DNA of 33,115 nt. It comes from a virus. Taxonomy: Duplodnaviria; Caudoviricetes. The notes under the pieces were generated by a model, which was not told the DNA's origin, searched no databases, and saw only the letters and a program-made list of their open reading frames with translations. Both the position numbers and the translations under genes were made by a program. The number at the start of each line of letters is the position of its first letter. The stretch's first letter is position 1. Of this stretch, positions 4,636 through 21,038 are shown piece by piece. The stretch lies in the IMG/VR virus record IMGVR_UViG_3300025141_000415, positions 1 through 33,115 of that record, one strand, 5' to 3'.

Positions 4636-6285
4636 ATGTATAAGAGAAGCGCCACGAATCCTGAAGAGTTAATAAAATTATATGAGTCTTTGAAAGTTGA
4701 CCGCGATAATATGTATTCTATTTGGGAGGAATGCCGCTTTTATTTCAACTCTGAAAAACAATTAATGCAGCCTAATAACTCAGGCAGTAAACAGATAGAG
4801 CAATCAACTCCATTGAATCCGGTAGGCTATGATGCTTCTATGCGTTTTGCTTCTGGTTTATTTTCCAATACATACTCAGCTGGAGAGCAATTCTTTTCCT
4901 TTAAAGTATCTCAGTCACAATTTGGTGATGATGAAGACCAAATGAAAGACTGGGCTATAGATGCAGCAAAAACTTGCATGGATAGAATTACTAGTACAAA
5001 TTTTTCTATTACTGCCTATGATATGATGCTTAGTTACTCCCGTTTAAATACTGGAGTTATGTATTTTGAGTGGCAGAAAGGTAAAGGCTTAGTATTTAGA
5101 GAGATTCCGATCACTGACTGTTGCATTGCTGAAGATGCAGAAGGTTATGTTAATATAGTTGTTCGCGAGTTTGAACTGACTAATAGACAGGCCTATCAGA
5201 AATGGGGCGATGCTTGCCACCCTAGTGTCAAAGAAGAGGCTAAAGATGTGGATAAATCTAATAATAAAATTAAGTATCTCCATTTTGTTATGCCACGGAA
5301 AGACTTTAAAAAAGACTCCATGAATAAAATGGACTTGCCTTATAAGAGCTGTTATGTCAATTCAGAGAAAAAACACTTAGTTGAAGAAGGTGGATATTCT
5401 TATTTCCCTTATGCTACACCAAGATTTTTACATAATAAGCAGATGCCATACGGTAGAGGACAAAGCTTTACTGCATTAGATGTCATGCGTGTATTGACTA
5501 AGATGGGTGAGAATATTGACGATGGTGTAGAACTTAAAGTTAATCCCCCTATTTTTGCTTTTGGTAATGTTGAGGAAGAAGATATTGATCTTGAGCCGGG
5601 CGGTTTTAACCACTTTGGAGCGGATTCTAAAGTAGAGCACTATCAATCAGCAATTGACCTACCAGCAGCAGACGCAAGAGAGATGCGCAAGGAGCAGGAA
5701 GTTCGCAATTTATTCTTCAATGATGTATTTGTGACTATCGAAGGTGAGGCAGCATTAAAAAATGTAACTGCTACTGCTATAGATTTTTTAAGAGCTGAGA
5801 GGATTCAAGCATTACTACCAATTGTCAACCGTTTATATGATGAATTTTACAGCCCGTTATTGAAAGGAGTCTTGCAGATTCTTGTTGAAAATAACGAGAT
5901 TGAGCCACCGCCTTCAATTGACATTAAAAATCTACGTGTTGAGTATTCAACAAAGTTAGATCAAAAGCTTAAGCTCCAAGATAGTCAACAAATATTGCAA
6001 AGCTTAATGGAAGTGCAGCAAATTTACACTCAAATGATGGAGTCTACTGACTTAAAGCACTTGGTTAATATTGATGAGATTGCACGTGATTTATTCAGAA
6101 ATAAGAATGTATCGCCTAAATATATCAAGTCAGAGGATGAAACCAACGATTCAAGAGCCGCCGAAGCTAGGGCAATGCAGTCACAGCAGCAACAACAAAT
6201 GATGATGGATAAAGTAGGCGCGGCCGATCCATTAAAGAAACCAGAGGCCGGGTCAATGGTTGATCAATTAGGTGAGATGGGATGA
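4636..6285 (+). CDS. Portal / head-tail connector (T7 gp8-like family)
   Basis: 549 aa with FASGLFS, FPYATPRF...PYGRG, VNPP, VTAT and a Q-rich C-terminus. Synteny fits. Confidence 0.92.
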   Translation: MYKRSATNPEELIKLYESLKVDRDNMYSIWEECRFYFNSEKQLMQPNNSGSKQIEQSTPLNPVGYDASMRFASGLFSNTYSAGEQFFSFKVSQSQFGDDEDQMKDWAIDAAKTCMDRITSTNFSITAYDMMLSYSRLNTGVMYFEWQKGKGLVFREIPITDCCIAEDAEGYVNIVVREFELTNRQAYQKWGDACHPSVKEEAKDVDKSNNKIKYLHFVMPRKDFKKDSMNKMDLPYKSCYVNSEKKHLVEEGGYSYFPYATPRFLHNKQMPYGRGQSFTALDVMRVLTKMGENIDDGVELKVNPPIFAFGNVEEEDIDLEPGGFNHFGADSKVEHYQSAIDLPAADAREMRKEQEVRNLFFNDVFVTIEGEAALKNVTATAIDFLRAERIQALLPIVNRLYDEFYSPLLKGVLQILVENNEIEPPPSIDIKNLRVEYSTKLDQKLKLQDSQQILQSLMEVQQIYTQMMESTDLKHLVNIDEIARDLFRNKNVSPKYIKSEDETNDSRAAEARAMQSQQQQQMMMDKVGAADPLKKPEAGSMVDQLGEMG

Positions 6286-6476
6286 ATAAAGAAGAGAGGC
6301 GAGAACTTTATAACGCGGTATTCAAAACACCGCAAGGATTGAAAGTATTAGAGGATTTATCTAAAAATTGTGAGTTTAAATATACTTCATTTAGTTTAGA
6401 GCCTTTAATGATGGCACATAAAGAAGGCAAAAAAGAACTTTTCCGATACATACAAAAACAAATAGAGGCGAAATAA
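6282..6476 (+). CDS. Bbp19-like small protein
   Basis: YNAVFKTPQGLKVLEDL...AHKEGKKEL pattern, between portal and scaffold. Confidence 0.75.
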   Translation: MNKEERRELYNAVFKTPQGLKVLEDLSKNCEFKYTSFSLEPLMMAHKEGKKELFRYIQKQIEAK

Positions 6477-6477
6477 C

Positions 6478-7344
6478 ATGGATGTAACACCAGAAAATGT
6501 AGACACATCACCAGCGGCAGGTACAGAAGTTTCAACCGAGGCTGATGTAAACCCAACAATTAACACTGATAATCTCTTAACTGGCATGGATGATAATATT
6601 CAACCAGATGTAAGTGGTGAATCTTGGCTAAATCAGTTAAGCGAAGAATATAGCAGTAACCCAAACGTTAACAAATACCAGACTCTTGATGAAGCTGCAA
6701 AAGGCTTAATTAATCAAGCCTCACTAATTGGTAAAAAAGGTTTAATCAAACCGGGCGAGAATGCCACACAAGAAGAGATTGACACATTTTATAATGCTAT
6801 TGGCCGCCCTGTAAAATCAGATATGTATAAGTATGAACCGATTGAAGGAGCGCCCCCAGTTGATGATTCAGCTATGGCAGGTTTTCAAGAGTTCGCACAC
6901 AATAAAGGTTTTACACAAGAGCAATTTCAAGCCGCTATTGAATTTGATTATCAGAGGCAACAAGCAGTGCAAGAGTCTTTTGAGCAAGAGCGAGTTCAAG
7001 AGGCTAATACTACTCAAATGGAACTCATGGAAGAAATGGGCGAAGTTGAGTATCAGGCATTTCTCAAGGATGCCAGTAGTGCCGCTAATAGCCTTGGCTT
7101 ATATGATGTATTAGTGGATAATGGTCTGGCTGGTAACAAAGAAGTTTTAAAAGCTTTAGCTAATGCTAGTAAGCATTTAGGGTCAAGTAATATGGTTGGA
7201 GATCAAAAGGTTAGTAATTTAGATTTTGATGGTCAACTTAATGAGCTACGATCTCATGAGGCTTATAGAGACAAGCTGCACCCATTACATAATGACATAA
7301 TAGCCAAGATTGATAAGCTTTATGCTAGGAGATACCCCAATTAA
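6478..7344 (+). CDS. Capsid scaffolding / assembly protein
   Basis: Acidic N-terminus, SWL..L.EEY...KY.TLDEAAK, FYNAIGRP and a C-terminal AYRDKLHP.H motif. Precedes the capsid gene. Confidence 0.82.
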   Translation: MDVTPENVDTSPAAGTEVSTEADVNPTINTDNLLTGMDDNIQPDVSGESWLNQLSEEYSSNPNVNKYQTLDEAAKGLINQASLIGKKGLIKPGENATQEEIDTFYNAIGRPVKSDMYKYEPIEGAPPVDDSAMAGFQEFAHNKGFTQEQFQAAIEFDYQRQQAVQESFEQERVQEANTTQMELMEEMGEVEYQAFLKDASSAANSLGLYDVLVDNGLAGNKEVLKALANASKHLGSSNMVGDQKVSNLDFDGQLNELRSHEAYRDKLHPLHNDIIAKIDKLYARRYPN

Positions 7345-7364
7345 TTAGCTCTTAATCTATCCTT

Positions 7365-7396
7365 AAGCCTCAGTATTAACTTACTGGGGTTTTTTT
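7365..7396 (+). terminator. Rho-independent terminator after scaffold
   Basis: AAGCCTCAGTA-ttaact-TACTGGGGTTT stem ending in a T7 tract. Confidence 0.85.
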
Positions 7397-7541
7397 ATGT
7401 CTGAATAATATTAAATCCATGAAACAAAAAAGAGAAAGAAAAGAAAACCGAGTAAAAGAAAACAAAGAGAAAAAAGCCGTGTCGTAGTACTTGCCCCAGA
7501 AAACAGGGCTTGTCAAGTACCATTTTTAAAAATAGAGAGGC

Positions 7542-7616
7542 ATTGATAGTGTATGATAGCAGGTGATAATCATATGCTATCATTTGCTATCATACTTAAT
7601 TATTATAAATATCAAT
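7542..7616. repeat. 10-bp-phased TGATAG/CTATCA palindromic array
   Basis: TGATAG at 7544 and 7554, TGATAA at 7564, TGCTATCAT at 7575 and 7585. 18-bp arms with 2 mismatches. Confidence 0.8.
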
Positions 7617-7621
7617 ACAGT

Positions 7622-7650
7622 TTGCATAATTCATAAATAATATTTATAGT
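7622..7650 (+). promoter_or_regulatory. Sigma70-type promoter for the major capsid gene
   Basis: TTGCAT (7622-7627), 17 bp, TATAGT (7645-7650). Predicted TSS ~7657. Confidence 0.7.
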
Positions 7651-7656
7651 GTATTT

Positions 7657-7770
7657 AAGGACACCCCTTTGCGGCCCTTGTTATCAATTAACAATGCGGC
7701 CCCTTCCTATTTTAGAAGACAAGGCCATAAGAAAAAAATGGCTTAATATCTAAAATAAGGAAAAAGAGAA
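7657..7770 (+). ncRNA. Structured cis-regulatory 5' leader of capsid mRNA
   Basis: Two hairpins share a GACA(C/A)-versus-C internal loop. An alternative 13-bp helix covers the SD. Confidence 0.6.
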
Positions 7771-8769
7771 ATGCCACTTTCATTCGACACCTATCATAAG
7801 GTACAATACAAAGACTCAGTACTTCGCTTAGCTGGTGAATTAACCGAGTCGGCTTTATTTAAATACATGATGAAAGAATCAAAGAAGGGCGAAGCAGTCT
7901 TTATTGATTCTATCGTTGCCAATGATGAAGCTACAAGCGCGGCTACTGGTGACATCGACGCTAATTACCGCAAAGGCTATGAGCAGGGCACAGCTAATCA
8001 CGCTAACTTCATGCTTACTCAAACGCCACACATGGAAGTAACAAGAGCTAGAACGCTTCTAACTCCAATCCATAACGAAATCGGCCACACGTTCAGATCA
8101 CTTGACGAGGTTCTAGCTAATCGCTCAGAACAGTCTTATGTTCTACGTGAGCTTATGGGTAGAATGGCTAAGAGAAAAGAGCGCATTATTCTTGATGCAC
8201 TTTTTGCCAATAGCGTTCAGCGTGGTAAAGATCAAGGTTCATTATCTACAATCACTTTCCCGACTGCTCAGGAAATACCGGTTGCTGATGATGTCTTTGA
8301 TAAAGAGGTTGTCAATGAAGTTAAGAATCTTTTCGAAGATAACTACATCGGTGCTGTTGGTGAGGACGAGCCTATCTTTATGATTATTTCACCAGAGAAG
8401 AAAAGGCAGCTTATTGCTAACTCTGGCGACACCCTTCATAATAAGGACTTTATTTCAAGTTCTGGTCACTTTGAAGGCGCGACACTTCCAAATATTTATG
8501 GCGTACACATGATTGTACACCCTGAGTTAAAAGTGGGTCGTGGTTATGAAGTTGACGGCGATGGCAATGGTACTTGGTCTGGTGGTCGTTCTGTAGCGTT
8601 TACTCCTAAGTGGGGGTGCTTTAACCAGTTCGACGGTCTAGCAAGTCAGATTGATAAAGATCCGGGCGAGCGCTTCCAGTACAAACTGTATATTGAAGAG
8701 ATGATTAATGCGGTTCGTGTTGACGATAAGCGTATTGCTCACATTCAGTTTGGTACACAAGCACCTTAA
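7771..8769 (+). CDS. Major capsid protein
   Basis: 332 aa after the scaffold with its own promoter. VQY..V..L N-terminus and C-terminal AVRVDDKRI typical of BPP-1-like capsids. Confidence 0.85.
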   Translation: MPLSFDTYHKVQYKDSVLRLAGELTESALFKYMMKESKKGEAVFIDSIVANDEATSAATGDIDANYRKGYEQGTANHANFMLTQTPHMEVTRARTLLTPIHNEIGHTFRSLDEVLANRSEQSYVLRELMGRMAKRKERIILDALFANSVQRGKDQGSLSTITFPTAQEIPVADDVFDKEVVNEVKNLFEDNYIGAVGEDEPIFMIISPEKKRQLIANSGDTLHNKDFISSSGHFEGATLPNIYGVHMIVHPELKVGRGYEVDGDGNGTWSGGRSVAFTPKWGCFNQFDGLASQIDKDPGERFQYKLYIEEMINAVRVDDKRIAHIQFGTQAP

Positions 8770-8785
8770 TATAACTGCATGAAAC

Positions 8786-8821
8786 TGGCCTCAAACTGTA
8801 TTCGCCTCCAGTTTGGGGCCA
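8786..8821 (+). other. 13-bp hairpin after capsid gene, no U-tract
   Basis: TGGCCTCAAACTG / CAGTTTGGGGCCA with loop TATTCGCCTC. Confidence 0.75.
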
Positions 8822-8841
8822 CCTAGTATAAGGATTTAAAT

Positions 8842-9426
8842 ATGTCACTTGCCACGACTTTCACAGATGTTGCCAACTTAGCTTTGAAGAGCTTAGGCGC
8901 TGTATCAATTCAAAGTATTGACGCTAACGACAGCCATTCACAAAGAATTAACGGTGTAATTGATGAAGTAGTTAGGCAGGTACAAAGCGAAATATCATGG
9001 CCTGAGCTTCTAAATGTTCAGCTCCTTGTAAAGCTGCCGGATAACTTTAACAATTCAGATTCTATTTATCGATATCAGTTACCGGAAGATTTTTTATCAG
9101 TAGTTGAAATTGACTCTAATCACCACTGGTCAATATTTGATGGTGTATTATTAACAACAGCAGAAGAAGTTAATTTAATCTATAAAGCTTACAACCCAGA
9201 TGTTACAGAATGGTCTGCTGAAATGACTGAAATGGTTTATAAAAAATTAGCTTCAGAAATAGCAATGCCGACTACACAAGATTTAAACCTATCTCAACTA
9301 GCTATACAGCGTTTCGAAATGTGCCGCGACAGGCTATTACCTCAAATGAAGAACAGATGCAGAAAGAGACAGGAAACATTAAGACGATTTAGTTATCTTC
9401 AAGTAAGAGATTATACCAGAAAATAG
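8842..9426 (+). CDS. Tail tubular protein A / adaptor (T7 gp11-like)
   Basis: DVANLALKSLGA, W, YRYQLPEDFL and KLASEIA motifs. Size and position fit. Confidence 0.85.
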   Translation: MSLATTFTDVANLALKSLGAVSIQSIDANDSHSQRINGVIDEVVRQVQSEISWPELLNVQLLVKLPDNFNNSDSIYRYQLPEDFLSVVEIDSNHHWSIFDGVLLTTAEEVNLIYKAYNPDVTEWSAEMTEMVYKKLASEIAMPTTQDLNLSQLAIQRFEMCRDRLLPQMKNRCRKRQETLRRFSYLQVRDYTRK

Positions 9427-9437
9427 GAGCCTTACTG

Positions 9438-12134
9438 GTGAGTAATAAAATACCTATATTAAAATTCAATACAGGTGAGGTTAGCCCCGAACTATGGTGG
9501 CGCTCAGATATAGATAAGTATATGGGTTCGAGTAGAAGGCTTGAAAACTTTATTGTTCAACCACAAGGCGCGATCAAAAGAAGGTTTGGTACAAGAGTTA
9601 TATCCAGAATAGGCAATAAAGGTGAGTTTGCAGATGCTAGAATAATTCCTTGGGTTATTACTAGAGATGATTATTTTCAATTAGTTTTTACGCCTGATGG
9701 TAAATTATCTATTTATAGTCGGCTTGGTGTTTTGGTAGAGTCTCTTGATCACCCCTATACAGCTCAAGAATTGGCAGAAATGGACTTTCAACAAGTTTTT
9801 GACGTGATGTTTATTGCTCATCAAAACCACCCATTACAGGACTTGAAAAGAACTGCACAGTTTACTTTTACATTAGCAGATCACGTGTTTGGCGGTGGCC
9901 CTTTTAATACAAGAAATGTTGACAATACTCAAACCTTGTCAATGACAATCACTGCTACACAAGATGAATTTACTGTTACTCACTCCGGGTCGAATCCACC
10001 TTTTGCTTATACTGATGTAGGTAGATTAATTAAGGTGCTTTATGATTCAAATAGAACCTTGAATGACAGATATGATACAGGGCAACAAGGCGCGGTTTCT
10101 GATTCTTTACCGGGTTTTGGTACTGTCACAATGCGTACTGAGGGTGGTATATGGGGTGGTCAATTAGACCTAGAAAAAAGCACCGATGGCGGTGTAACTT
10201 GGCAGGTCATAGGTTCTATTCAGAGTAATAGTGATAGTAATGTCGATCAGCGAAACGGTGAAATTCAGCGAGAAGTTGAAGAGTATAGTGCTTTAGTTCG
10301 TGTTAATATGAAAGAGCGTGGTGCGCCTTCTGGTGATTCTGGCTGCGCATGGTATTTAGAAGTTTCTAACGATCAATTTAATTATGTAGAGATTACGGGC
10401 TATACTTCACCTTCACAAGTAACCGCGACTTTAGTGGCTGGTAAATGGGCTAACACTAATGCTACTTATAATTATTCATTAGGTGCATTTTCAGAGACTA
10501 CCGGATACCCTAGAACAGTCACGATATTTGAAGAAAGATTAATGCTAGGCGGCACTAAATCAAAGCCAGCTACAATCTATGGTTCACAAACTAACAACTG
10601 GGAATTATTTGCAGAAGGTACTTTTGAAACAAGCCCTATTGTTTTTAGTCTTTCGAGTGATGTCCGAAATACAATAAATTGGTTAATACCGGAAAAGCAG
10701 TTAATTATCGGCACGGACTCAAGCGAATGGACTATAGGAACTCGCAATAATGACAAGGTTTTATCAGGCTCAAACGTAACAGCCAGAAGGCACTCACAGT
10801 TCGGTAGTGAGCAAGTGGCACCTGCTCAAGCTGGAGATATGACTTTATATATTGAATCAGGTGGCAGAAGATTGAGAACTTCTAACTACAGTTTTCAAGA
10901 TGATGGCTACGTATCCAATGACATGAATTTAATGGCAAGGCAAATAACTGAAAAGGTTAAATTAATAGAGTTAGCATACACCAGAACACCAGACAAATTA
11001 GTGTGGGCGCTTCTTGAAGATGGTAGCTTAGCTAGTTTTACTTTTGAGCCAGACCACAATGTTTTAGCTTGGGCAAGACACCCAATGCCAGACGCAACAA
11101 TCTTGTCAATAGATTCAGTTATTGGCCCGTCTAATGATGAAGTAGGCTTAATAGTTGAAAGGAATGACGGCATATATTATGAGGTTATTAATAACACTAA
11201 TCTTTGCTTAGATTGGCAACAGAAATTTACACTAGAGAGCTTTAAAGAAATAGTCACTCTTGCTGGTGATGAAGATAATTATCTCTATCACGATCATTTA
11301 TTAAGAAGAGAAGAGGCACCTTTTTCTGGTATAGGTTCATTCGTTCGCTTATCATCGCCATTGACCACTCCGATTATGAAGTATGCAGGATTAACTTTAG
11401 AAAAGGGTAAAGATTACTTAAAGTATAGTGATACATTATTCTGGCTCAATACTGTTACTAACTTAGATTTAATCACTGTATTTGATGGCCTGTCTGAAGT
11501 TTTAGTGTATGACAAATTCTTAGGTGTGGAAAGCTTCACAATCACAGTTAATAAAGATAGGGTTAATATGTCTAGTGCGGTTATAAGATATGACGGTGCA
11601 CTGCTAGTAAGAGATGTAGATTATTTTGAAATGTCTGGAGCCGGTCAATTTCTTATAATTGGCCAACGAGATAAAGATATTGATCTATATGAGATTCTTG
11701 ATGCTATATTAATTCCATTGGCTATTGATGACTGGCGTATACAATCAACTCGCGCTTTGGTTTCTATTGAAGGTGAGGACGTGGCCGAGTTCACAGTAGG
11801 ACTGGAAGAGGAAAGTTTTATTGAAATAAATGACCCTGCTCCGGTAATGGGGCCGGGAATGAGAAGGAATACACCAGAAGGCGAAATTTATTTATATAAT
11901 TCTATTGGTGGGGAATTATCCGTCAATGGACAGGATTTTGACCCATTATTTTTTATTGGTGTAAATACTACTACTAATCAATTAATTGAGCCTTTTACAG
12001 GAAAAAAGAGACTTGCTTTTAATCACGGCTACAGTAATGACGAAGACGATAGTATAATGATAAGAAATAAATCAGTTCACGGCATGACAATCTGTGCCTT
12101 AAGTTTACTTGGAAGAGTTACAGGGAGAAAATAA
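9438..12134 (+). CDS. Tail tubular protein B / nozzle (T7 gp12-like)
   Basis: FNTGEVSP, QGAIKRRFGT, GYPRTVTIFEERL and AWARH motifs. GTG start with AGGAG SD. Confidence 0.88.
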   Translation: MSNKIPILKFNTGEVSPELWWRSDIDKYMGSSRRLENFIVQPQGAIKRRFGTRVISRIGNKGEFADARIIPWVITRDDYFQLVFTPDGKLSIYSRLGVLVESLDHPYTAQELAEMDFQQVFDVMFIAHQNHPLQDLKRTAQFTFTLADHVFGGGPFNTRNVDNTQTLSMTITATQDEFTVTHSGSNPPFAYTDVGRLIKVLYDSNRTLNDRYDTGQQGAVSDSLPGFGTVTMRTEGGIWGGQLDLEKSTDGGVTWQVIGSIQSNSDSNVDQRNGEIQREVEEYSALVRVNMKERGAPSGDSGCAWYLEVSNDQFNYVEITGYTSPSQVTATLVAGKWANTNATYNYSLGAFSETTGYPRTVTIFEERLMLGGTKSKPATIYGSQTNNWELFAEGTFETSPIVFSLSSDVRNTINWLIPEKQLIIGTDSSEWTIGTRNNDKVLSGSNVTARRHSQFGSEQVAPAQAGDMTLYIESGGRRLRTSNYSFQDDGYVSNDMNLMARQITEKVKLIELAYTRTPDKLVWALLEDGSLASFTFEPDHNVLAWARHPMPDATILSIDSVIGPSNDEVGLIVERNDGIYYEVINNTNLCLDWQQKFTLESFKEIVTLAGDEDNYLYHDHLLRREEAPFSGIGSFVRLSSPLTTPIMKYAGLTLEKGKDYLKYSDTLFWLNTVTNLDLITVFDGLSEVLVYDKFLGVESFTITVNKDRVNMSSAVIRYDGALLVRDVDYFEMSGAGQFLIIGQRDKDIDLYEILDAILIPLAIDDWRIQSTRALVSIEGEDVAEFTVGLEEESFIEINDPAPVMGPGMRRNTPEGEIYLYNSIGGELSVNGQDFDPLFFIGVNTTTNQLIEPFTGKKRLAFNHGYSNDEDDSIMIRNKSVHGMTICALSLLGRVTGRK

Positions 12135-14276: not shown

Positions 14277-17200
14277 ATGGAAATTGCCCCTTATAGTTTA
14301 CCACAGCCACTACCAGAGCCTTTATTTGATAGTGGAACTCCTGAAGAGCAGCCGCGCCAACAACTTCCAGAAATGGAAATAGATGTTGATGCCCTAATGA
14401 GTGATATTAATAGTTTTAGTGGTGATCCAGAAGAGGCAAGAGTATTAACCAATCTTTATATAGGCCATAAAATAGGCACTATCCCAAAGCCGGAAGATTA
14501 TAACGCGAATGTAAATTCTTATATGTATTCTGGTGCAGCGGACAATGATCCGATTAAAAACTTAGAGCACATTAGAAGAGGTTTTGCTCCAGAAGAAGAT
14601 AAAGCTTACACTCAGTTACAAGACTTTGAAGCATTGACACCAGAGGAGCAATGGGATAGAATCAAAGCGCCTTTTGAAGTTGGTCGTGGTGTTGCTATCG
14701 GTGCGACTATGCCAGCTATGATTCCTCAACAATATCAGCAAGAAGTATTTGTATCTGAAGCCGATAAAAAGAAGCATATCAATAGCCACATAAATAAGCT
14801 TAGGAATAGCAGCCAAACTTGGAAGCTCCAGCAAGGTAAAGGCTTTTCAGACAAGGCCAGAAACATGGTCAATAAAATGGTTATGACTAAGCAGCCGCCT
14901 AATCTTTTTACTTATATGAGTCTTTCGGAAAGAGAGCGAAACAATTTTTTTATTTATGCTTCCGGTCGTAATCCTAAGTATGATGTTGGTTTTTTTGAGT
15001 CTCTTGGTGGTACTATAAGCCAAGCCGCAGTTGATATAAAAGACAGTTTTAAGAAAACAGGTGAATCTATAGTAAGGTCACACTTAGGTGTAGAAGACCC
15101 AGAAGAGTTTTTCCTAAGATTCAATGCTAAGTTTGGCGATACATTTAACGCTGAGAGTGTAACCGATGACAAGCGCAAAGAGATACGAAACTGGGTACTA
15201 GATCAAATTCAGCCAACTGTGGAAGAGGGGGACGCGCTATCTATTGGTGAGGCTTATTCTCAAAAGACATACGATACCACAGACATGATAATGAATCAAT
15301 TTGAAGAACATCTTGAAATTGGCGCTCAATCCCGTATGCAAAAAAAGCTTGAAGCAAAAGCAAAAGCAGCAACAAGACACAATTATAAAACTGGTTTAGT
15401 TGGAGATGCTCTTTTAACTGCTACCGAGATGGGTATGGATTTGGGCGCGGTAGCCGCTTTAAGTGTTGGTACTCTTGGTATGGGCGGCATGGCTTATTCA
15501 GCAGGTAGGTTTTTTGGAGATTATGAAGACTCACTTTTAGACGCTGGTGTTGATCCAGATAAGGCAAAAGCAACAGCCCTATTAACTTCAATCCCTTATG
15601 TATTAGTTGAGCAATTACAGGCAGGCCAAGTATTTGGTAAGCAATTTAAAGGCGTTGCTAATAAAATTGTCGATGATTTAGATATAGGTAAGATTGCCAC
15701 CAATGCAATTAAAAATAGCAGTAATCCTAAAATATCAAAGATTGCTACTGGCGCTAGAATTACAGCGGATTATGTAGACAATGTTAGTGCTGAATTAGTT
15801 GAAGAGATAGCACAAGAAGTTTTCTCAGAAGTCGGCAAGCATAGTGCTATAGAAGGGTATGAGTTAGAAGAGTCAATTGGCAATGTTATTGAGACAGCAA
15901 AAGAGGCATTTAAAGGCTTAGTTGTTTTAGGTGTTGGCACTCCTGCATATAGAGGTATTAAAGGCGAGTACAATGGTGATTTTATTGAACAAGATATATC
16001 TGACACTATTGAGGGAACTTTTACACCTCTTACAAGGCAAGAAGAAGAAGCGATAGGCTTAGGTGACCTAAGAGCTGAAGAGTATCAAGAGGCAGAAGAT
16101 AAAGACGCTTATTTAGAAGAGATGGGCTATAATGAGAGGCAACGAGAGCTTATACACGCCACTCAAGACATTGAGCAAGAGGAGATTCAGCAAAGAGTTG
16201 GTCAATTAGATGCTCAAGAAGCTCAAGAGCTTAAAGCGCCTACCACTGGAGTTGAAGCACTCCGAGCAATGACACAAAGGTTTGAGCCATTCGCTAATAT
16301 TAAAGAAGAGGGTGACGGGCTAAGAATAACCACAGATAAAGGTTTTGACTTTGCTGTCAAATTCAATGGTGATATAGGTGGGGACTTTGGTACATCAGAC
16401 CCAAGACTAGCAACAATTAACCTTAGTGAAAAAAGCGGCCTACCTACATTTAATCATGAATTTGGCCATATGATTAGAGATATGGGGGGCGTGACTGATA
16501 CAGAATGGAAGTCAGTTGTTAAGATTGCCCGTGAGTCACTAGGTGCTGAGGAAGTCGCTAAGATAATAGCCAAAAATAAAGAAGGTTATGAAGCTAGAGG
16601 AATTAAATTTACTGACGATATAAAAGACCATGAAATATTTGCCAATGCCTTAGAGGAATGGACACTTACTGGTGATGTCCCTGTTGATGCTCGCGGTGCT
16701 CTACAAAAGTTTTTAGACTTTATAAAAGATATGTTAGCTCAGTATATCGGTGGTTCTCAGAGTGGTCAGAGAGTTATATCAGATATTCAGTCAGGTAAAA
16801 TACTTGAGAGAAAACCATTAGGCCGCGCCAAGCAAAAAATGGAGCGTGCAGCCAAGCGCAGAGAAGAAGAAAGAGATTTTGCTAAAGTAAGGAAAGAGCG
16901 ATTATTTATTGAAGAGGCTTTAACAGAGGCAGAGGCTAACAATAAAGAACTTGTTTCTGCAATTGAGGCTTTAAGTAGATTAGAGCAAGCGCCAGATTTT
17001 GTTAAGCAAAAATTATCCACACAAGAAAGAATAGATCAAGCGACTGGCATAGTTCGACCTACTGAAGACATGAGGCCTGAAGATTTTATCACTGGTGATG
17101 AGATTATCGAAAGTGAATTGCCCGGAGACTTCTTCCAAGATAAAGCGGAAGGTGCCGGAATATCACCAGAGGAGTTATATGGCTTTGGTGAGACCATTCA

Positions 17201-20200
17201 GGATCCAGTATTGAAATTTATTGAAGAAAATGGCGGTATAGCTAGAACTCCAGAAATTGAGCAGGAGATAAAAAACCGCTTTGAGAACATGGTCGCAACT
17301 AGGCGCTATGTCAATAAAAGCGGTGCTCTTGATTGGGATCAAATGGCAGAGCTATTAAGCACTGAACCAAGCAGCCCACTTTTTGAAAGAGAAGTGACAA
17401 AAGATGACATTTTAGATTATCTTGCCCAAGACTCCGAAACAAAGTTCTCTATAGCCCCACGCACAGACTCGAAAGCTTTTAAAGACTGGTTTGGCGATTC
17501 TAAGGTAGTCAATGAAGACGGCAGCCCGAAAGTTGTTTATCATGGGACTGGTGCTCAATTCAATGAATTTAGTAAAAAAATGATTGGAACAAAATGGGGC
17601 GCTGATGAAAAAGGATTCTTCTTCACTTCAGGGGAAAATATAGCTAAAGAGCATTATTTTGAAGAGGGTGGCAGAGTAATTCCGGCTTATGTATCTTTGC
17701 AAAATCCATTGATTATAAATAAAGATTTTTTGAATAGTGAGGGTATGAGCGACATTGATACTCTCGGTGAAGATACGATAACGTTTTGGGATTCTTACCA
17801 AGGTTTAATTTTGGATGATTGGTTAAAATCTGAACATGATGGTGTTATTGTTGTAGATGAAGTCGGCTTTAATGGTCAAGCAGATTATATGGTGGTGGCC
17901 TTCGAACCAACCCAAATCAAATCCGCCACAGAAAACATTGGCACCTACGACCCAGCCAACCCAGATATAAGATATTCCTTATCTCCAAGATCAGAGCGTG
18001 ACGCGGTTACAGTTCTTGCCAATGCCATTGTTACCGGAAAAGCTAAGACACTAGCACAGCGAGAGCAGATACTTAACTCTTATAAAATCCCATTAGAGAA
18101 TCAAGCGGCTATAAAAGAACGTGCATTTGATATAGCAGAGCAAGTACAAAGCGAAATAGACTCGCTTGAGAATACGCAGACTATACGCAATGCTATCCGT
18201 AAAGCTGAGATTAAACAGTTCTATGATGCTGAGAGAAAAGCTATTCTTGAAAAAGGTATAGAGCAAGGTGAACTGCTTGAGATGGCTAGAGCTAGACTAA
18301 AAGAAGACCGCAAAAAACTAAAAGAAGCGACTAAGCAACAGCAAGAACCATTGCCAAAAATGGACGAAAGAGTGAGGTCTATTAATGATGAAATGGCTAT
18401 GCTTAAAGTTGTTGATGATATTGTCAATGATACACGTAAAAAAGTATTCCCTAAAAAAGAACCTAAGAATTGGCAACGTGATCCAAGAATATTAGGTACT
18501 ATTCGTGAATCTGTTAAATCTGCTGGTAATTATTTATTGAAGAATGTTGCACCGGGAGCAGACAAGCAAAAACTTAAGCAGCAAATAAAAGAACTGTCAG
18601 ATAAAGCCACATACAGAGGTTTGAGAAGTGCGTCAGAAAAAGTACTTAATAATATTTTATCTAAAGCCGAGACAACAACAAGAAAAGAAGTTCAGAATTC
18701 ATTAAAAAGCACTCTTAAAAATTATAGTTCAGAGCCACCAGCTAAAGTAGAAGCTAGAAAAAGAACTATAGAAGGCGATAGGCATTTATTTTTATATCAT
18801 GGCTACAAAGCTATAGGCATGAGTCTTGAGAAATCTCAAGAGAAAATGGAAAGTATAAATGGTGATCTAGAAAGATTGCTAAAAAAGAATGATGCAGGAT
18901 CAGATATCCTTATAGAGGATAAAGAAATCGAATATAGAGCCTATATGACTTTTGGGGGTTTAAGTGACAAAGAAGCCAATATACCAGATATAGTATCAGC
19001 TCAAGAGTACGCAGAAAAAGTAATTGCTGATGGTAAGGCTTTAGTAGAAAAACTACAAAAAGAACATGACGAAAAATACGCAGAGACTAGACAGGCTATA
19101 ATTAGCGCAATTCTAAAAGCTAAGCCATATGTTGAAAAAGTTGACGACCCAAGCAAAATAAGTCAATTGTTTGATTTTTTCAAAACAATGAATGTAAGAG
19201 AGCAATTAGAATATATTACAGAGTACGGATCTGACCAAGAAAAAAGCTTACTGAAAAAAATATTAGACTTTAATGGTACATCTAAGATAAAAAAGAAAAC
19301 ACGCATACTTGAAATGAATCGCAAGCTAGAAAAAGTAGCTCAAGATTTAGGCATAAAAAATATAGAAAATTATGCATTAGATAGAAGTAAGCTTGAAAAG
19401 AAGTTTCGCAAGTATTCACACGAAGGCCGAACGGATATGAGTCGCGCTAATCTTATGCAACTTTATATGACTTTCAGGCAACTGGATGTTATAGAAATGG
19501 CCGCTAGAGTAAATAATGATGGCGAGCTTATCAATCCAGATTTATACAAACGTCTTCAACAAATGCCGGAAATAAGAAAAGAATTAACAGATCAAGAAAT
19601 GCGCTTAGCTGATGCTATGGGCGATTTAATTTCTGAGATGTTACCGGATATAAATAAAGCCTATAAAAAGCAATATGGCATAAATATGAAGATTCAGCCG
19701 GAAAATTATTGGTCTTTAAGAGTTCAAGTAAAAAGCGCTGGATATGAATCTGTCATGGCTACTGTTTCAGAAGCTCCGGGATTTACTATACAGCGTGTAG
19801 CTCATAAAAATGATTTAGACGAAAGAGCAGATATATTCGAAGTTTTCTATGGTCATGTATCAGACGCAGCACATTATATAGAAACAATTGATAGTCAATT
19901 AGCTATACGTAGCACTTTAACAAATCGCAATTTTAAAGAAGCGGTTAGGCAAACATACGGAAAGGAAACTCTAAAACAAGTAGATGGTTCTATAGTAGAT
20001 ATGGCTATAGATCGTGCTTTAAATCCTGATAAGGGTATTGCTATTATTGATTTTGTGCGTTCTATCATGAGTACTATTTCAATCGGATATAACCCTAAAT
20101 CTTGGTTAGTTACTGCTACTGGTGCCGTAAATATCTTTACTACTCATAAGGGTATGTTCCGCACTATCGGGGCTATATCGAAAAATCCAGACCAATATAA

Positions 20201-21038
20201 AAAGAATATATCAACTGTTTTAAATTCGGCAGTAGTCCAAGAAAGGTTAAAGCAAGGTTTAAACGAGCAAATGAGAAACGCTCGTGAAAGAGCTAAAGCA
20301 AATAAAGCGGTTAAAAAATATGTTGATATGGGTTTTCATCCTTTATCATGGGTAGATTCAAGAGTAGCTGCTTTAGCTGGTGGGGCTATTTATACAGAGT
20401 TCCAAAATTCAGAAGCAGCAGCGGGATTAACTCCACAAGAAATAGAAACGCAAGGTTTAGCGTTAGTAGATTACGCTATACAAAAAGCTTACCAACCTAC
20501 AGACCCTGACATGTTACCTTCTGCTATAAGACGTGGCGGTTCAGTGATAAAAGCAATATTCCAATTTATGACAGAGCCCATGTCTAAATTAGGTTTATAT
20601 GCTAAAGATTGGAATGCAGCAAAAGTTATGTGGCAAAAAGGCAAAAAAGATGAGGCAGTTAAAAAGGCACTTAAAATAGTTATAGGCCAGCATATAATAG
20701 TTCCCGCAGCCTACTGGATGGCAGGTGAAATTATGCGCTTAGGTGAGGATGACGACTGGGAAGAGAGATTGGATAGATTGGCTGTTCATATTATGGTTGG
20801 CCCTATGTCAGGGTTACTTATAGTAGGTACAGGTTTAGATATTGCAGCTAAACACATAGTAGGAGAAAAAATATATTTAGGATCTTCTACACCTTCAGAT
20901 AGAGTTATTAACGAAGTTAAATTTTTATTAGACCGTGCCACTAATTGGGAAGATGAAGAAATTGACGAAAAAATATTAAAAATAATTAAACAATATAATC
21001 CTGCTGTAAAAAACACTTTAAAAATAATAGAAGATTAA
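14277..21038 (+). CDS. Giant internal virion / polyvalent protein with metallopeptidase and ADP-ribosyltransferase-like domains
   Basis: 2253 aa at the gp16 position. HEFGH at 16455-16469. FKDWFGDSKVV...VVYHGT...GFFFT...YVSLQNP...HDGV...FEPTQIKS at ~17460-17980. Confidence 0.85.
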   Translation: MEIAPYSLPQPLPEPLFDSGTPEEQPRQQLPEMEIDVDALMSDINSFSGDPEEARVLTNLYIGHKIGTIPKPEDYNANVNSYMYSGAADNDPIKNLEHIRRGFAPEEDKAYTQLQDFEALTPEEQWDRIKAPFEVGRGVAIGATMPAMIPQQYQQEVFVSEADKKKHINSHINKLRNSSQTWKLQQGKGFSDKARNMVNKMVMTKQPPNLFTYMSLSERERNNFFIYASGRNPKYDVGFFESLGGTISQAAVDIKDSFKKTGESIVRSHLGVEDPEEFFLRFNAKFGDTFNAESVTDDKRKEIRNWVLDQIQPTVEEGDALSIGEAYSQKTYDTTDMIMNQFEEHLEIGAQSRMQKKLEAKAKAATRHNYKTGLVGDALLTATEMGMDLGAVAALSVGTLGMGGMAYSAGRFFGDYEDSLLDAGVDPDKAKATALLTSIPYVLVEQLQAGQVFGKQFKGVANKIVDDLDIGKIATNAIKNSSNPKISKIATGARITADYVDNVSAELVEEIAQEVFSEVGKHSAIEGYELEESIGNVIETAKEAFKGLVVLGVGTPAYRGIKGEYNGDFIEQDISDTIEGTFTPLTRQEEEAIGLGDLRAEEYQEAEDKDAYLEEMGYNERQRELIHATQDIEQEEIQQRVGQLDAQEAQELKAPTTGVEALRAMTQRFEPFANIKEEGDGLRITTDKGFDFAVKFNGDIGGDFGTSDPRLATINLSEKSGLPTFNHEFGHMIRDMGGVTDTEWKSVVKIARESLGAEEVAKIIAKNKEGYEARGIKFTDDIKDHEIFANALEEWTLTGDVPVDARGALQKFLDFIKDMLAQYIGGSQSGQRVISDIQSGKILERKPLGRAKQKMERAAKRREEERDFAKVRKERLFIEEALTEAEANNKELVSAIEALSRLEQAPDFVKQKLSTQERIDQATGIVRPTEDMRPEDFITGDEIIESELPGDFFQDKAEGAGISPEELYGFGETIQDPVLKFIEENGGIARTPEIEQEIKNRFENMVATRRYVNKSGALDWDQMAELLSTEPSSPLFEREVTKDDILDYLAQDSETKFSIAPRTDSKAFKDWFGDSKVVNEDGSPKVVYHGTGAQFNEFSKKMIGTKWGADEKGFFFTSGENIAKEHYFEEGGRVIPAYVSLQNPLIINKDFLNSEGMSDIDTLGEDTITFWDSYQGLILDDWLKSEHDGVIVVDEVGFNGQADYMVVAFEPTQIKSATENIGTYDPANPDIRYSLSPRSERDAVTVLANAIVTGKAKTLAQREQILNSYKIPLENQAAIKERAFDIAEQVQSEIDSLENTQTIRNAIRKAEIKQFYDAERKAILEKGIEQGELLEMARARLKEDRKKLKEATKQQQEPLPKMDERVRSINDEMAMLKVVDDIVNDTRKKVFPKKEPKNWQRDPRILGTIRESVKSAGNYLLKNVAPGADKQKLKQQIKELSDKATYRGLRSASEKVLNNILSKAETTTRKEVQNSLKSTLKNYSSEPPAKVEARKRTIEGDRHLFLYHGYKAIGMSLEKSQEKMESINGDLERLLKKNDAGSDILIEDKEIEYRAYMTFGGLSDKEANIPDIVSAQEYAEKVIADGKALVEKLQKEHDEKYAETRQAIISAILKAKPYVEKVDDPSKISQLFDFFKTMNVREQLEYITEYGSDQEKSLLKKILDFNGTSKIKKKTRILEMNRKLEKVAQDLGIKNIENYALDRSKLEKKFRKYSHEGRTDMSRANLMQLYMTFRQLDVIEMAARVNNDGELINPDLYKRLQQMPEIRKELTDQEMRLADAMGDLISEMLPDINKAYKKQYGINMKIQPENYWSLRVQVKSAGYESVMATVSEAPGFTIQRVAHKNDLDERADIFEVFYGHVSDAAHYIETIDSQLAIRSTLTNRNFKEAVRQTYGKETLKQVDGSIVDMAIDRALNPDKGIAIIDFVRSIMSTISIGYNPKSWLVTATGAVNIFTTHKGMFRTIGAISKNPDQYKKNISTVLNSAVVQERLKQGLNEQMRNARERAKANKAVKKYVDMGFHPLSWVDSRVAALAGGAIYTEFQNSEAAAGLTPQEIETQGLALVDYAIQKAYQPTDPDMLPSAIRRGGSVIKAIFQFMTEPMSKLGLYAKDWNAAKVMWQKGKKDEAVKKALKIVIGQHIIVPAAYWMAGEIMRLGEDDDWEERLDRLAVHIMVGPMSGLLIVGTGLDIAAKHIVGEKIYLGSSTPSDRVINEVKFLLDRATNWEDEEIDEKILKIIKQYNPAVKNTLKIIED

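Follow-up and report, generated by a model that had tools for sequence, protein, structure and literature searches.

The window analyzed here is the full length of the 33,115-base virus record IMGVR_UViG_3300025141_000415, which is 92% complete and carries a podovirus head and tail module with genes for the terminase, the portal (4636-6285), a Bbp19-like protein, a scaffold-like protein, and the major capsid protein. For the window capsid, tblastn gave no match to an annotated phage, and no match was obtained among prokaryotic genome contigs either. Table 1 collects the features of the leader that precedes the capsid gene, in which HP1 and HP2 denote two hairpins with 4x1 internal loops and the OFF helices denote the pairings with which these hairpins compete.

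Table 1. Coordinates of the capsid leader elements and of the neighboring genes and signals in the window
Feature	Position	Strand	Basis
Bbp19-like small gene, candidate ligand	6282..6476	+	PF25181 E 1.3e-9; in all 4 other switch-bearing genomes compared
Scaffold-like (capsid assembly) gene, leading candidate ligand	6478..7344	+	tblastn; PF05396-labelled look-alike cluster; all 4 genomes compared
Terminator-like hairpin and U run, predicted end of scaffold transcript	7365..7392	+	consensus scan only
Sigma-70-like promoter (TTGCAT, 17 nt, TATAGT), predicted start near 7657	7622..7650	+	consensus scan lists overlapping site 7621-7650
HP1, 4x1 internal-loop hairpin, ACAC opposite C, long strand 5'	7657..7679	+	fold; clade comparison
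OFF helix 1, 7673-7683/7689-7701, HP1 3' arm and linker with HP2 5' arm	7673..7701	+	fold; clade comparison
HP2, inverted 4x1 hairpin, C opposite ACAA, ends 44 nt before start codon	7698..7726	+	fold; clade comparison
OFF helix 2, 13-bp anti-SD helix, 7704-7716/7749-7762, one bulged A	7704..7762	+	fold; own-vs-cross pairing test
OFF helix 3, HP2 3' arm (7722-7728) with 7738-7744	7722..7744	+	fold; counterpart predicted in L001, L002, L004
Shine-Dalgarno-like AAGGA	7757..7761	+	sequence
Major capsid protein gene, 332 aa	7771..8769	+	PF19821 E 2e-8; phrog_3437 major head protein E 5.9e-18

With a terminator-like hairpin after the scaffold gene and a promoter-like site before the leader, the capsid gene is likely on its own transcript. 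The consensus scan gives this site a score of 9/12, and promoter-like sites are not commoner than chance across positions 6000-10000 (12, vs 11.5 in shuffles); the support for the putative promoter is positional. Relatives have a promoter-like site at the same position, with a perfect TTGACA in L002, and a TATA-like hexamer, read by eye, lies a few bases 5' of HP1 in 9 of 12 clade leaders. The other three, which are GC-rich, do not have this hexamer, and their HP1 lies shortly downstream of the scaffold stop. In the capsid leaders L134, L160, and L162, also read by eye, a promoter-like site appears to run straight into HP2, without HP1.

The scaffold and capsid genes are separated by 390-504 nt in the four closest phages and by 155-198 nt in six further members of the clade. 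In the window (7345-7540), L002 (990-1260), L004 (upstream of 1380), and L015, this gap holds a purine-rich repeat and, after it, a CCGTG/CGTAGTA-like sequence, while the gap of L001 (1020-1330) is unrelated in sequence to this repeat. Between this region and the capsid promoter, positions 7544-7592 hold an imperfect inverted-repeat array of TGATAG-like units, which occurs once in the window, is kept in L015 and L002, and is a candidate operator for a transcription regulator. Directly after the capsid stop codon and before the ribosome-binding site of the next gene lies a GC-rich hairpin (8778-8822; GGCCTCAAACTG ... CAGTTTGGGGCC), which the consensus scan does not call a terminator. Elsewhere in the window, 14277-21038 encodes an internal virion-type protein of 2,253 aa with an ART-PolyVal ADP-ribosyltransferase domain at residues 1079-1223, and two long same-strand frames overlap at 54-815 and 58-810, one being a C-5 DNA methylase (Pfam) and the second also matching methyltransferase-labelled PHROGs.

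Competing predicted folds in the capsid leader

The first-pass annotation had described a two-state RNA switch in this leader, and every element that it placed within 7657-7770 is present at its coordinates, including the repeat of TGCGGCCC at 7670 and 7695. Each hairpin is the best fold of its own stretch, that of HP1 in isolation being weak (−1.9 kcal/mol), and that of HP2 having an energy of −7.1 kcal/mol. A scan of both strands of the 33 kb window finds this pair a single time, and it turns up in at most 2.5% of 200 shuffles for any of 33 leaders; a covariance model built from seven close leaders likewise found no second motif copy in the window. Loop-loop kissing between the two hairpins was ruled out by inspection, as ACAC and ACAA are not complementary.

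The minimum-energy fold of the leader is the OFF state, with a z score of −3.46 and none of 200 shuffles as stable. It contains both the 13-bp helix over the Shine-Dalgarno (SD) sequence and the stem enclosed by it (OFF helices 2 and 3), as had been proposed, as well as OFF helix 1, which the annotation had missed and whose pair probabilities are 0.79-1.0. The latter is supplied by the TGCGGCCC repeat and takes up the 3' arm of HP1 together with the 5' arm of HP2, such that HP1, too, is taken apart in the OFF state; the inner part of the helix (7680-7692) is able to persist in the ON state. The self-complementary GGCC is present three times in the leader, such that the arms are able to swap partners.

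Explicit energies are −11.7 kcal/mol for HP1, linker, and HP2, vs −30.4 kcal/mol for the three OFF helices. The predicted probability that the SD sequence is unpaired is 0.21 when the RNA folds freely vs 0.97-0.98 when HP2 is held, and the SD sequence stays buried (0.22) when HP1 alone is held. In these predicted folds, HP2 and the SD-burying helix are indeed mutually exclusive, as claimed. Relative to the free ensemble, the ON ensemble costs 16.2 kcal/mol at 37 °C and 19.7 kcal/mol at 4 °C. An RNA thermometer was ruled out, as the gap between ON and OFF stays at 15-20 kcal/mol from 4 to 50 °C, and an attenuator was ruled out because the consensus scan places no terminator-like site in the leader. 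A fold that buries the SD sequence and excludes the conserved fold, a feature of translational ON riboswitches, was thus found by computation in the window, and was not seen in 4 of 13 clade leaders.

Conservation and co-evolution across capsid leaders

Our clade set comprises 14 leaders, including that of the window, gathered by capsid homology (34-92% identity). The two-hairpin descriptor finds the HP1 and HP2 pair in 13 of these, and L007 fails it because of a bulge in the outer stem of HP1. A DNA-pattern scan of viral contigs returned 78 stretches, just four of which are, by eye, capsid leaders with both hairpins, the rest looking like chance matches in coding sequence; three further same-family capsid leaders were obtained in this way. 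Searches with their capsids contributed 116 viral loci, one genome locus, and 16 hand-chosen annotated phages, with single proteins serving as queries because deep capsid alignments are too divergent as seeds. Eleven loci with a short flank or no clear start were left out, and the resulting 137 leaders reduced to 88 non-redundant ones, of which three are seeds chosen by the motif itself.

Both hairpins are present in order in 40 of the 88 leaders, vs 3 of 169 coding-window controls; 14 leaders are assigned to the HP1 type, 24 have HP2-type hairpins only, and 10 have neither. The 24 with only HP2-type hairpins weaken the argument for two sites. The motif peak is confined to the 200 nt upstream of the capsid start, with the end of HP2 mostly 27-63 nt from the start (63 of 66 leaders), and the two hairpins are about 18-56 nt apart in most two-hairpin leaders. 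As for an aptamer-type element, the loops are conserved, yet the linker is variable and HP1 is missing in many leaders. The covariance model from the seven close leaders is too narrow for distant ones (9 matches in the 88 sources). Among cultured or annotated phages, both hairpins are found in DU_RP_II, Vibrio phages 1.182.O and K227, and the Manatee Spring podoviruses, while the HTVC010P leader has an HP1-type hairpin only, and that of Alteromonas phage ZP6 has two HP1-type hairpins with GUAG/U loops. By host, the motif ranges over Alteromonas, Vibrio, and Ralstonia phages, and it is also present at a prophage-like locus of an alphaproteobacterial bin. The motif is not enriched within −130..+30 of the scaffold start (1 of 34 loci). 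One cultured phage, L246, has a second HP1/HP2-like pair across its scaffold start (4858-4976), in coding sequence and possibly by chance.

The annotation had called for a covariation analysis of related capsid leaders, and in this analysis both loops proved to be conserved and the stems to co-vary. A plain MAFFT alignment of seven close leaders gave no significant covariation (74/500 and 393/500 shuffles as high), while in a model-fitted alignment of nine leaders, 88.7% of the cells are paired and compensatory changes occur in 9 of 13 pairs, with 0/500 shuffles as high, the fitting itself favoring this result. When the leaders are anchored at the loops, 71 of 84 flanking cells are paired for HP1 (12 clade leaders; shuffled mean of 54) and 84 of 91 for HP2 (13 clade leaders; shuffled mean of 61), counts that are inflated because the scanner itself selects paired stems. 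The stems also show G-U changes beside the compensatory ones.

The terminal loops of the hairpins vary freely, and the conserved unpaired letters are those of the internal loops, which come in two types, AYAM opposite C or GUAG opposite U. Of the 38 leaders with two hairpins, 33 have the same type in both (Fisher p = 3e-5, without correction for kinship). We note that the GUAG/U label requires five changes, at least three of them forced, on a quick capsid tree of 84 rows, such that this agreement reflects few events and not 38. GUAG/U loops are present in both hairpins of L115 (ZP6), L119 (K227), L166, L170-L175, L184, and L191. No residue columns of the capsid or scaffold were found to track the loop type, the top columns following the tree. 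Taking these observations together, we are highly confident that the leader is a real, conserved, and apparently uncatalogued capsid-leader RNA.

The proposal of a switch had also been made to hang on conservation of the anti-SD helix in homologues, and the pairing was found to co-evolve with each phage's own ribosome-binding site (RBS). In this test, duplexes were computed between each HP2 and the −25..+3 region of its own leader as well as those of other leaders, using GC-binned permutations. In the 13 leaders of the window clade, pairing of HP2 with its own RBS amounts to −12.6 kcal/mol vs −10.3 kcal/mol for the others (p = 0.00065). The preference is also seen in the L047 group (30 leaders, p = 5e-5, the floor of the test), in the cultured/other group (8 leaders, p = 0.008), and over all 66 leaders (p = 5e-5, again the floor), and is absent in the L072 group (15 leaders, p = 0.69). 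A far upstream control segment gave no own-RBS signal, and neither did HP1, which was thereby rejected as the anti-RBS partner. In subsets picked post hoc, with the data already seen, six AT-rich leaders (p = 0.004) and nine leaders with OFF helix 1 (p at the floor) show the preference, and four short-linker leaders as well as eleven GUAG/U leaders do not, the latter for either hairpin.

Lineages differ in which arm of HP2 faces the RBS: the window, L010, L026, and L109 use the 5' side, and L007 and L019 the 3' side. Such variation would be expected if the expression platform had been re-invented. OFF helix 1 is found in 9 of 13 clade leaders, with altered linker sequence, in a test that also counts the linker stem, a helix that can form in either state. 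L008, L009, L022, and L023, which form one well-supported subclade on the capsid tree, keep both hairpins without OFF helix 1 and show no own-RBS preference; for L008 and L009, the fold predicted as the ground state is that with the hairpins. When the ON state is forced, 23 of the 66 leaders gain more than 0.1 in RBS access and 8 lose access. A two-state translational switch is probable for the lineage of the window.

Proposed switching mechanism, candidate ligands, and alternatives

The annotation had read the leader as a switch that a ligand, probably a phage protein such as scaffold, turns on by binding the paired internal loops. The conserved loops, the co-varying stems, and the anti-SD pairing with the phage's own RBS support this reading in part, and those refuting conditions of the annotation that were open to a test did not hold; against it, 4 of 13 clade leaders do without the OFF helices. 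The form of it that we prefer, for and against which we judge the case to be evenly balanced, is a conserved two-state capsid leader whose predicted rest fold hides the RBS, and which would be switched on as a protein, probably a phage head-assembly protein, binds both loops during transcription.

In this mechanism, HP1 would form first on the nascent RNA. If unbound, it would be displaced by OFF helix 1 before HP2 is complete, and the RNA would end in the three OFF helices; if held, it would allow HP2 to form (with a probability of about 1 at lengths 7728-7740), and, with HP2 then held in turn, the SD sequence would emerge free. The holder would be a dimer or two copies of one protein, and the purpose would be to withhold coat synthesis until expression of the scaffold operon, which is transcribed separately. 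This path was modeled from equilibrium folds at each RNA length, not from kinetics: with nothing held, HP1 is about half formed up to length 7692 and then displaced, and with HP1 held, HP2 is full at 7728-7740 and lost on the appearance of the downstream arms. With the ON state some 16 kcal/mol above OFF, capture at equilibrium is implausible, which leaves transcription as the stage at which the switch would need to operate; capture at that stage, followed by ribosome loading, is the likely route in our model. Non-canonical pairs in the loops may make the gap between ON and OFF smaller than computed.

The portal, Bbp19-like, scaffold, adaptor, and nozzle proteins and one internal virion protein are common to the window and the four other switch-bearing genomes, as is the capsid by family, and the reader of the loops, if phage-encoded and shared, is probably among these morphogenesis genes. 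Our best single guess for the holder is scaffold, a tentative choice made by analogy, as it is preferred through logic and the P22 precedent only; the next candidates are the Bbp19-like protein or the capsid protein. In tblastn, the scaffold-like protein matches proteins annotated as capsid assembly, scaffold, or protease in pelagiphages and others, and comparison of the Bbp19-like protein returned its own family only. A single-sequence structure model of the scaffold was too poor to interpret (pLDDT of 46). A fuller account, which we regard as doubtful, is that of a family-wide assembly checkpoint in HTVC010P/BPP-1-like podoviruses, in which scaffold would read the two inverted C-loop-like bulges on the capsid mRNA as it emerges, trap the +16 kcal/mol fold, and thereby license the making of coat, with an AYAM/C-GUAG/U code co-evolving with the reader. 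A Cys-rich protein of 132 aa without family match is encoded between the small and large terminase (2292-2690); it occurs in three of five related records, close relatives only, and is absent from three of the four other switch-bearing genomes.

An alternative that we find unlikely is that the paired loops bind a protein and originally served a purpose other than SD opening (for example, feedback repression by free capsid protein, scaffold recruitment to nascent coat, or 5'-end protection), with the OFF helices added in some lineages. Such an origin would fit the clade leaders that keep the hairpins without OFF helices (4 of 13, with the hairpins as the ground state in L008 and L009), the lack of an own-RBS signal in the L072 and GUAG/U groups, and the conserved distance of the HP2 end from the start. 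However, the hairpin and SD-burying states exclude each other in the window, eight clade relatives, L109, and L116, and binding of the loops would therefore open the SD sequence in these leaders.

An ON switch of the same kind in which the ligand is a host factor, a small molecule, or an ion appears improbable to us. The span of the motif, from Alteromonas, Vibrio, and Ralstonia phages to the prophage-like alphaproteobacterial-bin locus, would suit such a ligand, as would the lack of a phage residue that tracks the loop type, and the change between AYAM/C and GUAG/U loops may be a matter of geometry alone, with an A.C wobble exchanged for an isosteric G.U wobble. Against such a ligand, hairpin spacing varies widely, unlike in a compact aptamer, and both loops change letters jointly within phage lineages.

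Switching without any ligand, by a folding timer in which a short-lived hairpin intermediate gives ribosomes a single chance to load ahead of the relaxation to OFF, is quite improbable. The MS2 maturation leader is a precedent for such a timer, and the large gap favoring OFF suits a one-way process. However, unheld HP1 is displaced at lengths 7698-7704, before HP2 is complete, and without holding, the outer stem of HP2 never exceeds a probability of 0.14 (at equilibrium for each length); in addition, the unpaired loop letters are conserved, and capsid genes require high output. Finally, it is highly improbable that the structure arose by chance or that the element acts at the level of DNA, as an activator site or through single-stranded hairpins, given the compensatory and G-U stem changes, the co-evolution with the RBS, and the location directly after a promoter-like site, even with GACAM present as a direct repeat and the case for RNA being drawn from sequence.

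Comparison with known systems

The annotation had not recognized a named riboswitch, and Rfam 15 at gathering thresholds agrees, with no matches in the window; it also gave none at 14 homologous loci, with GP20-a/GP20-b and Mu-gpT-DE among the families covered. In E-value mode, there are 18 sub-threshold matches in 7345-7800. Translational ON riboswitches have mutually exclusive folds, one of which buries the SD sequence, and a variable expression platform. The capsid leader shares, by prediction, the exclusive folds, including one that buries the SD sequence, and differs in having two small, separate hairpins with a variable linker instead of a compact aptamer, and in its lack of an Rfam match.

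The C-loop consensus contains a C-A-A/C bulge. With an A.C or G.U closing wobble, the bulge of the capsid leader reads Y-A-M, also in a small asymmetric internal loop, a likeness by sequence pattern only, and the closing pair differs from that of the C-loop in being a wobble. The C-loop module is further defined by crossed cWS and tWH pairs (PMC6237812).

Comparative genomics has yielded 8,495 viral candidate RNAs, some of them directly before phage capsid genes (Fremin et al. 2023; PMC10690425), and both these candidates and the GP20-a/GP20-b motifs resemble the leader in lying directly before phage structural genes; the GP20 families differ in that they gave no Rfam match on it. The capsid domains listed for those candidates are HK97, N4, PHA00201, and capsid_maj_Podo, and the supplementary listing as available has no match to 'pfam19821', a comparison by labels and not by models or alignments. 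We found no description of the capsid-leader RNA in the literature, where the models of PMC10690425 and the supplement of PMC5737381, the main text of which does not contain the word 'capsid', may hold the motif.

The matching of coat to scaffold in tailed phages is known mainly from P22, and protein-activated phage translation mainly from Mu Com. The leader is a defined, mutable RNA element before the capsid gene, found across a family that includes HTVC010P-like marine phages and cultured isolates, and the question of coat and scaffold matching is thus directly testable. As a genetic part, too, a leader that is tightly OFF and is kept ON by a protein for a short time would be of use.

In P22, the scaffolding protein regulates translation of its own gene (10.1101/2022.12.13.520362). 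The action proposed here is alike in that a head-assembly protein would act on translation and balance head components, and differs in that P22 regulates its own scaffold gene, whereas here the motif stands before the capsid gene and at the scaffold start in 1 of 34 loci. In phage Mu, the start signals of mom are buried in an inhibitory structure that is opened by a factor on an adjacent hairpin, Com, which recognizes CC(N)2-3GAG in a hairpin loop (PMC6483171). The capsid leader likewise has a predicted inhibitory structure over its translation start signals, backed by co-evolution with the RBS. It differs in its target, which is the capsid gene, in its three OFF helices, and in its two inverted internal loops (AYAM/C or GUAG/U) in place of a CC(N)2-3GAG terminal loop, and no Com-family zinc-finger Pfam match was found among the proteins scanned in the window, i.e., in a record that is 92% complete. 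The leader would work like Mu Com/mom, yet is not a member of that system.
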